Made by a program: the position numbers and the translations under genes
Origin: an uncultured Chloroflexia bacterium
Lineage (GTDB): Bacteria > Chloroflexota > Limnocylindria > Limnocylindrales > CSP1-4
Assembly: GCA_963766655.1 (NCBI GenBank)
Contig: CAVYBB010000002.1
Span: forward strand, 938,170-1,002,169
Length of the DNA: 64,000 bases
Reading direction: 5' to 3'
Shown: piece by piece, positions 14,701-14,855 of the stretch
Position numbering within the stretch: position 1 is the stretch's first letter
Layout: each line of letters begins with the position of its first letter
The notes under the pieces: generated by a model
What the model saw: the letters and a program-made list of their open reading frames with translations, nothing else
Told to the model about the DNA's origin: nothing
The model's database searches: none

Positions 14701-14734
14701 AAACAAAAAGAGCAGAGGTCCGAACCTCTGCTCT
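14701..14734 (-). terminator. Intrinsic terminator (attenuator) in aro operon leader
   Basis: Minus strand AGAGCAGAGGT-TCGG-ACCTCTGCTCT followed by TTTTGTTT. Confidence 0.88.
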
Positions 14735-14777
14735 CCCGGCACGACCCGTGCTCCCGGGTCCTAGGATCCGGGAACGA

Positions 14778-14813
14778 TCATGCCGGGCTGCGAAAGTAGA
14801 AGTAGGGATTCAT
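14778..14813 (-). CDS. Aro operon leader peptide MNPYFYFRSPA
   Basis: ATG AAT CCC TAC TTC TAC TTT CGC AGC CCG GCA TGA; four consecutive Tyr/Phe codons between promoter and terminator. Confidence 0.8.
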   Translation of the reverse strand: MNPYFYFRSPA

Positions 14814-14826
14814 CTGCGTGCTCCGG

Positions 14827-14855
14827 ACGGTACCCACCGCCGGGTCGCCTGTCAA
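14827..14855 (-). promoter_or_regulatory. Sigma70-type promoter of aro operon
   Basis: TTGACA-17 nt-TACCGT. Confidence 0.7.

Follow-up and report, generated by a model that had tools for sequence, protein, structure and literature searches.

The aro operon and its leader

We identified a whole shikimate operon on the minus strand of the window, the full 64,000-nucleotide stretch of DNA that was analyzed. The first gene, aroF (13587..14672, minus strand; ATG start codon at 14672), encodes a DAHP synthase with an N-terminal ferredoxin-like domain (Pfam DAHP_synth_1 at 1.4e-82 and DAHP_snth_FXD at 1.4e-09), and a purine-rich Shine-Dalgarno sequence lies ahead of it at approximately 14685-14691. 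Downstream are aroA, aroE, aroC, an aroK-aroB fusion, aroQ and a type II chorismate mutase (7571..13590, minus strand; individual gene starts are approximate). The order of genes from aroF to chorismate mutase had been read in an earlier note on this DNA, and the Pfam assignments agree with it.

Genes for tryptophan biosynthesis are located on the opposite strand (2968-6898, plus strand) and converge on the end of the aro operon. They encode IGPS, PRAI and PALP (PLP-dependent enzyme) domains in one long frame, followed by trpA. Genes for tRNA-Ser(GCT) and tRNA-Arg(GCG) were identified upstream of the leader, on the other strand (15777-15955, plus strand). Both overlap the 5' part of a frame with a GrpB domain (15087-15869, minus strand), so the GrpB gene probably starts further downstream.

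The region ahead of aroF includes a promoter, a very short open reading frame (ORF) and an intrinsic terminator, all on the minus strand. The promoter consists of a -35 box (TTGACA, 14850..14855) and, 17 nt past it, a -10 box (TACCGT, 14827..14832) that ends 13 nt before the ATG of the leader ORF. These are the two boxes named in the earlier note, and all features described there were confirmed at its coordinates. The -10 box agrees with TATAAT at just 3 of 6 positions, a weak match. The TTGAC of the -35 box and the TA..GT pattern of the -10 box are both invariant in 25 of 25 aligned relatives. Transcription would start a few bases upstream of the leader ATG. In a sister family the -10 box is only 6-7 nt from the leader ATG, which implies a leaderless transcript. 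A consensus scan of positions 13500-16000 of the window listed neither the promoter nor the terminator of the leader; the terminator is absent from the scan output even though positions 14701-14734 contain a G+C-rich hairpin of 11 bp and, behind it, 8 bases of which 7 are T.

The leader ORF encodes MNPYFYFRSPA (14778..14813; 11 codons plus TGA, with the ATG at 14813-14811 and the TGA at 14780-14778). As first noticed from the letters alone, it has four consecutive Tyr/Phe codons. These regulatory aromatic codons, TAC TTC TAC TTT (Tyr-Phe-Tyr-Phe, 14793..14804), occupy leader positions 4-7. A second frame of 6 codons (14761..14781) begins with an ATG that overlaps the leader TGA (ATGA).

Folding places three helices behind the aromatic codons. 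The 5' strand of the first, P1 (14776..14787), includes the final codons of the leader along with its stop codon. A second hairpin, P2 (14750..14775), sits atop P1; it corresponds to the middle hairpin of the earlier note, and the TAG triplet in its loop ends the 6-codon frame. The 3' strand of P1 (14735..14746) abuts the terminator hairpin T, with a linker of 0 nt. The 11-bp stem and 4-nt loop of T (14709..14734; read from 14734 to 14709 on the minus strand) and the U-tract TTTTGTTT that follows (14701..14708; 14708 to 14701) likewise bear out the terminator that had been proposed. Only 28 nt separate the U-tract from the aroF ATG. The predicted energy of the 131-nt leader RNA is -63.2 kcal/mol, compared to -43.7 +/- 4.3 kcal/mol for shuffled sequences (z -4.57; 0 of 200 shuffles as good), and that of the isolated terminator hairpin is -18.3 kcal/mol.

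Conservation among relatives and across Chloroflexota

We found aroF in 34 of 41 related genomes and fetched 30 loci, 26 of them with enough upstream sequence for comparison. All 26 encode a TGA-terminated ORF of 11 codons (ATG start in 24, GTG in 2); one of these genomes (G010) is unpublished, and the count is 25 of 25 without it. The search for Tyr/Phe-rich ORFs ahead of aroF that the earlier note suggested as a check was thus positive in all relatives examined, and such ORFs extend across the phylum. Aromatic clusters of the leaders include YFYF, FFYF, YRYF, FYWY, WYF, FWYY, FYYYFYF, YAYWFYF, YYYF and YFAF. Phe, Tyr and Trp codons interchange in the leaders of relatives, and synonymous swaps (TAC/TAT and TTC/TTT) also occur. 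Aromatic residues account for 3-4 of the 11 leader positions in 25 of 25 relatives, as opposed to 71 of 1975 codons (3.6%) in the aro genes. The rare Phe codon TTT is enriched in leaders (TTT:TTC of 25:19, versus 1:34 in the aro genes). This pattern of codon changes fits selection on the aromatic codons as amino acids, not as letters. If the element is an attenuator, the amino acids sensed would be Tyr and Phe in the window and Trp as well in relatives. The dual Tyr and Phe sensing proposed earlier therefore suits the window leader, and is too narrow for a family that also has Trp codons and would respond to all three aromatics.

Other parts of the leader peptide are variable. C-termini and stop codons differ by family (e.g., ..RxPA-TGA, ..YA-TAG, ..SPPA-TGA, with others longer), and the residues past the aromatic cluster track the sequence of P1, with no peptide motif kept across families. 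Such variation speaks against action of the peptide inside the ribosome tunnel, and we rejected nascent-peptide arrest of the TnaC type because neither the C-terminal residues nor the stop codon is conserved between families. The ATGA overlap is present in 124 of 136 unique leaders, 116 of which carry the 6-codon frame. In other Chloroflexota families the main leader ORF often extends to a stop near the P2 loop.

The positions of the helices relative to the ORF are conserved. The distance from the last aromatic codon to P1 is 3-5 nt in 113 of the 136 unique leaders and 2-6 nt in 16 of 21 phylum-level loci. The stop codon falls within the P1 5' strand in 136 of 136 leaders, and within P1/P2 in 20 of the 21 phylum-level loci as read by script. 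P1 directly abuts the terminator (0 nt) in 64 of the 136 leaders and is 3-7 nt away from it in 65; at 20 of the 21 phylum-level loci, the gap is 0-1 nt.

Across 41 phylum-wide sequences (at least 12 families), 11 of 11 modelled P1 pairs show double changes and pairing holds in 96% of cells, in an alignment that was fitted to the model structure and thus favours that structure. The observed level was reached by 0 of 500 shuffles, and slid controls pair at 40-55%. The arms of P2 are wholly different between families, and pairing is nonetheless kept. The P1 base is G-C in 34-38 of the 41 sequences, and the two bottom pairs of the terminator are A-U or G-U in 28 of 37 and 36 of 41 of the sequences with letters there. 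The terminator core, CAGAGG/CCUCUG, is identical in 39-41 of the 41 sequences, and 5 of its 9 pairs never change. This near-invariance contrasts with the free covariation of P1 and P2, and none of the explanations that we tested fits it.

A degenerate pattern identified at least 119 stretches in public contigs, which by title are from Chloroflexota, mostly Candidatus Limnocylindria. Among the 119 matches listed, 114 have aroF directly downstream, 4 are without downstream sequence and 1 is a chance match. Four loci (L061, L064, L084 and L099) with the same leader are in metagenome-assembled genomes titled Verrucomicrobiia or Methylomirabilota. The leaders precede aroF in L061, L064 and L099, and L084 runs off the end of its contig; these titles may reflect binning or labelling errors.

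A covariance model built from 25 leaders finds a single copy in the genome from which the window comes (E 4e-28 on the window). In a sample of the class, it identified the element in 50 of 151 genomes (41 of 44 in family f1, 5 of 6 in f2, 0 of 49 in f3, 3 of 50 in f4 and 0 of 1 in f5). In a sample of the phylum, it was found in 34 of 151 genomes and at least 9 further families, a tally that includes one unpublished genome (G217). Families with hits include f14 (4 of 4), f17 (4 of 5), f22 (6 of 7) and f25 (8 of 8). Several hits of this sample are in single-contig genomes, so cultured members of the phylum probably carry the element. The gene downstream of the 21 phylum-level loci is mostly aroF; others are different subtypes of DAHP synthase and, in one case, prephenate dehydrogenase. 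No aromatic upstream ORF was identified within 1.5 kb ahead of aroF at 8 loci (L172-L179) from 6 genomes of f3 and f5. At these loci aroF directly follows a coding stretch, by eye a putative chorismate mutase gene. A search of f4 with the aroF of the window left four genomes without a match. We conclude that the element is real and ancient.

Leader folds and the search for an antiterminator

Leader folds were predicted with a ribosome footprint masked out, placed in turn on every aromatic codon and on the stop codon, for both full-length transcripts and transcripts cut before the 3' arm of the terminator. The earlier note had called for such masked folds and expected the architecture of pheL/trpL, in which the end of the leader would pair beside the 5' arm of the terminator as an alternative fold. 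The pairing is real, and is P1 itself. It shares no bases with the terminator and is not an alternative fold: whichever mask was applied, the minimum-energy fold contained the terminator, and in full-length transcripts P1 and the terminator coexist in all folds. The pheL/trpL architecture was thus not borne out. Neither the masked folds nor the complementarity tests revealed an antiterminator that shares bases with the terminator (the 2:3 type of trpL), and in the stalled state neither arm of the terminator has a conserved partner.

In cut transcripts of the 136 leaders, the 5' arm of the terminator pairs (probability 0.79) only if the leader is free of ribosomes, and it does so with the aromatic-codon tract, as an extension of P1. 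With a ribosome, the probability of pairing of the 5' arm falls to 0.25-0.42 and the partners differ from sequence to sequence. For the RNA alone, pairing that requires the absence of a ribosome means that stalling would favour termination, which is the wrong sign. We rejected the aromatic tract plus terminator 5' arm as an antiterminator, as its mean duplex energy (-6.6 kcal/mol) is close to that of shuffled tracts (-6.3 kcal/mol; z -0.18), i.e., an effect of composition. Among phylum-level loci this pairing is uneven (0.01-0.93).

Other candidates were also rejected. The terminator 5' arm is less complementary to the leader interior than are shuffled versions of that arm (z +0.83). The 3' arm is at z -0.31, and its complementarity is notable solely in the subgroup to which the window belongs (-13.2 kcal/mol, z about -2.6). 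The 5' arm of P2 can alternatively pair with the end of the P1 3' strand in the window and in f4; this pairing is absent in f2 and overlaps the terminator by no more than 2 nt. Frameshifting at a hungry codon, with translation through the terminator, was also considered. By raw count, the +1 frame, taken from the aromatic codons, continues beyond the terminator in 121 of 136 leaders and is closed by earlier stops in 15. No slippery-site argument favours this idea, and the +1 frame of the window ends at a TGA just past the U-tract.

Probable attenuation and alternative readings

The leader lies behind the promoter and ahead of the first gene of the matching biosynthetic operon. It has clustered codons for the end products of the operon, an intrinsic terminator before aroF, and a hairpin that a translating ribosome would open, since its 5' strand includes the last part of the ORF. 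A helix that would take up terminator bases when the ribosome stalls, another feature of such attenuators, was not found. From comparison of sequences, we consider it very probable that the element is a ribosome-mediated leader-peptide attenuator of the aroF operon that senses the supply of charged aromatic tRNA.

When supply is good, the ribosome would cross the aromatic codons, enter P1 with the stop codon and unwind it. The RNA before the terminator would then be single-stranded, so the terminator could form and transcription would stop at around 14701. When supply is short, the ribosome would halt on the aromatic codons just before P1, leaving P1 and P2 folded. The folded, GC-rich base of P1, at 0-6 nt from the AU/GU-rich base of the terminator, and the parked ribosome may then hinder completion of the lower terminator stem within the polymerase, with readthrough to aroF as the outcome. 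Both the response to starvation and the way in which P1 opposes the terminator are predictions of this scheme.

Of the possible coupling steps, we tentatively favour hindrance by folded P1 of the completion of the adjoining terminator, while holding it more likely to be wrong than right. Folding of P1 and P2 is what differs between the stalled and the running ribosome, and the short linker and the base composition of P1 and T also point to this step. Against it, the base of P1 would be opened by the very ribosome that stalls at the last aromatic codon, and the 3-7 nt linkers in 65 of 136 leaders weaken a model that requires strict abutment. A broader and somewhat more doubtful idea is that attenuators across the phylum work without bases shared between terminator and antiterminator, the adjoining P1 blocking the stem sterically in the exit channel or via the polymerase. 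If there is such a class, the ribosome would lift the block by unwinding P1, and an untranslated leader would be read through, the opposite of super-attenuation in trp.

The absence of a detected RNA antiterminator also bears on the possibility that the element is a structured RNA (riboswitch- or put-like) bound by a protein, a small molecule or RNA polymerase, with the ORF incidental or secondary. We regard this as improbable. Families that share only 50-60% identity in their aroF proteins have the CAGAGG/CCUCUG core and much of the P1 core in common, and such deep sequence conservation is unusual for a leader-peptide attenuator. However, the aromatic cluster is kept as amino acids, with Phe, Tyr and Trp interchanging and with synonymous changes, while the frame, a start codon and a stop within P1/P2 are maintained, and there is no match in Rfam. 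Furthermore, an effect of folded RNA on the polymerase could accompany sensing by the ribosome and need not replace it.

Quite improbable, in our view, is a logic in which the empty leader pairs its aromatic tract with the terminator 5' arm and is read through, and any ribosome causes termination, with the sign of the response set by a polymerase pause at P1 or by drop-off of early-stalled ribosomes. The lower 5' arm pairing in ribosome-occupied folds of the 136 leaders (0.25-0.42, from 0.79 when empty) and a transcript that is leaderless, or nearly so, with aromatic codons already at positions 4-7 are consistent with this logic. But the complementarity is no better than that of shuffled tracts, the pairing is weak or absent at several phylum-level loci, and alone it would give more termination upon starvation, a response that would be senseless in a biosynthetic operon. 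It is highly unlikely that the promoter, ORF and terminator constitute an independent small gene (for a small protein or a trans-acting attenuator RNA), aroF being expressed by constitutive leakage. The unit does have its own conserved promoter and a strong terminator, and a trans-acting RNA derived from an attenuator has been described (rnTrpL; PMC6614838, as far as the accessible part of this source goes). Against a separate gene, the 28 nt from the U-tract to the aroF ATG leave no room for a separate aroF promoter, the element consistently precedes genes of the aromatic pathway, and the genome has one copy, located here.

Under the attenuator reading, the closest known system, compared by description, would be aroR-aroF of Corynebacterium glutamicum. 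There, a Phe-Tyr-Phe leader precedes a DAHP synthase gene, and transcription is reported to increase when the ribosome stalls under Phe limitation (PMC11802643, PMC4046766; originally Neshat et al., 2014). The leader in the window also contains F-Y-F, and its aroF also encodes a DAHP synthase. In contrast to aroR-aroF, as described in the accessible parts of these sources, the window leader is from another phylum and precedes a whole shikimate operon, it has relatives with Trp codons, its transcript is leaderless or nearly so, and no antiterminator was found. The trpL, pheL and hisL leaders of Enterobacteria share with it tandem codons for the end product, a hairpin over the end of the ORF and a terminator before the first gene. 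Unlike these, the window has no 2:3 helix sharing bases with the terminator, P1 adjoins and coexists with the terminator, the regulatory codons are just upstream of P1 and not inside it, and the folds predict readthrough, not super-attenuation, if the leader is untranslated. The Rfam models for the Phe, Trp, His, Leu and Thr leaders and for the T-box gave no match up to E = 10 in the window and up to E = 1 at 8 phylum-level loci.

A layout of upstream ORF, P1 and terminator also occurs in the ilvB-II motif of Corynebacterium, in which an upstream ORF spans the first hairpin and a terminator hairpin follows directly (PMC10272879). An antiterminator is proposed in the accessible part of that report, whereas in the window family the 3' arm is, overall, no more complementary to the interior than expected by chance (z -0.31). 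Phe/Tyr upstream ORFs linked to shikimate-pathway genes were identified bioinformatically by Stav et al. (2019; PMC6429828, Fig. 6b). These can be likened to the element by description only, and no Chloroflexota are named among the genomes studied, in the part of that paper that is accessible. Literature searches on Chloroflexi, leader peptides and transcription attenuation yielded no account of the element; supplementary motif alignments could bear on its novelty. The element is very probably a new family within a known type of switch, with a possibly unusual coupling step.

If the operon is so regulated, the element would be the first described case of regulation of aromatic amino-acid synthesis at the RNA level in Chloroflexota. 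Its conservation across the phylum is sufficient to define an RNA family and to aid annotation. A design without a helix that competes with the terminator would make control of a terminator by a ribosome, in the absence of an antiterminator, directly testable. Eleven public runs labelled as RNA contain at most 9% of the sampled words; four of these yielded contigs of relatives (85-95% identity), which cannot show transcript ends or levels.

Canonical terminators are very scarce in this GC-rich genome, and the one in the leader is among the few. Our own scan of the 3.85-Mb genome identified 32 comparable T-runs, 10 of which are beside a strong hairpin, the aroF leader being among the 10. No Rfam matches were found at 7 other U-tract terminator sites that were checked in this genome (G000). 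Sites with T-runs include those near 544190 (plus strand) and near 74587 (minus strand) on contig C1, and near 916110 (plus strand) on contig C3. Several of the T-run sites come after a promoter-like TTGACA box and a short RNA.
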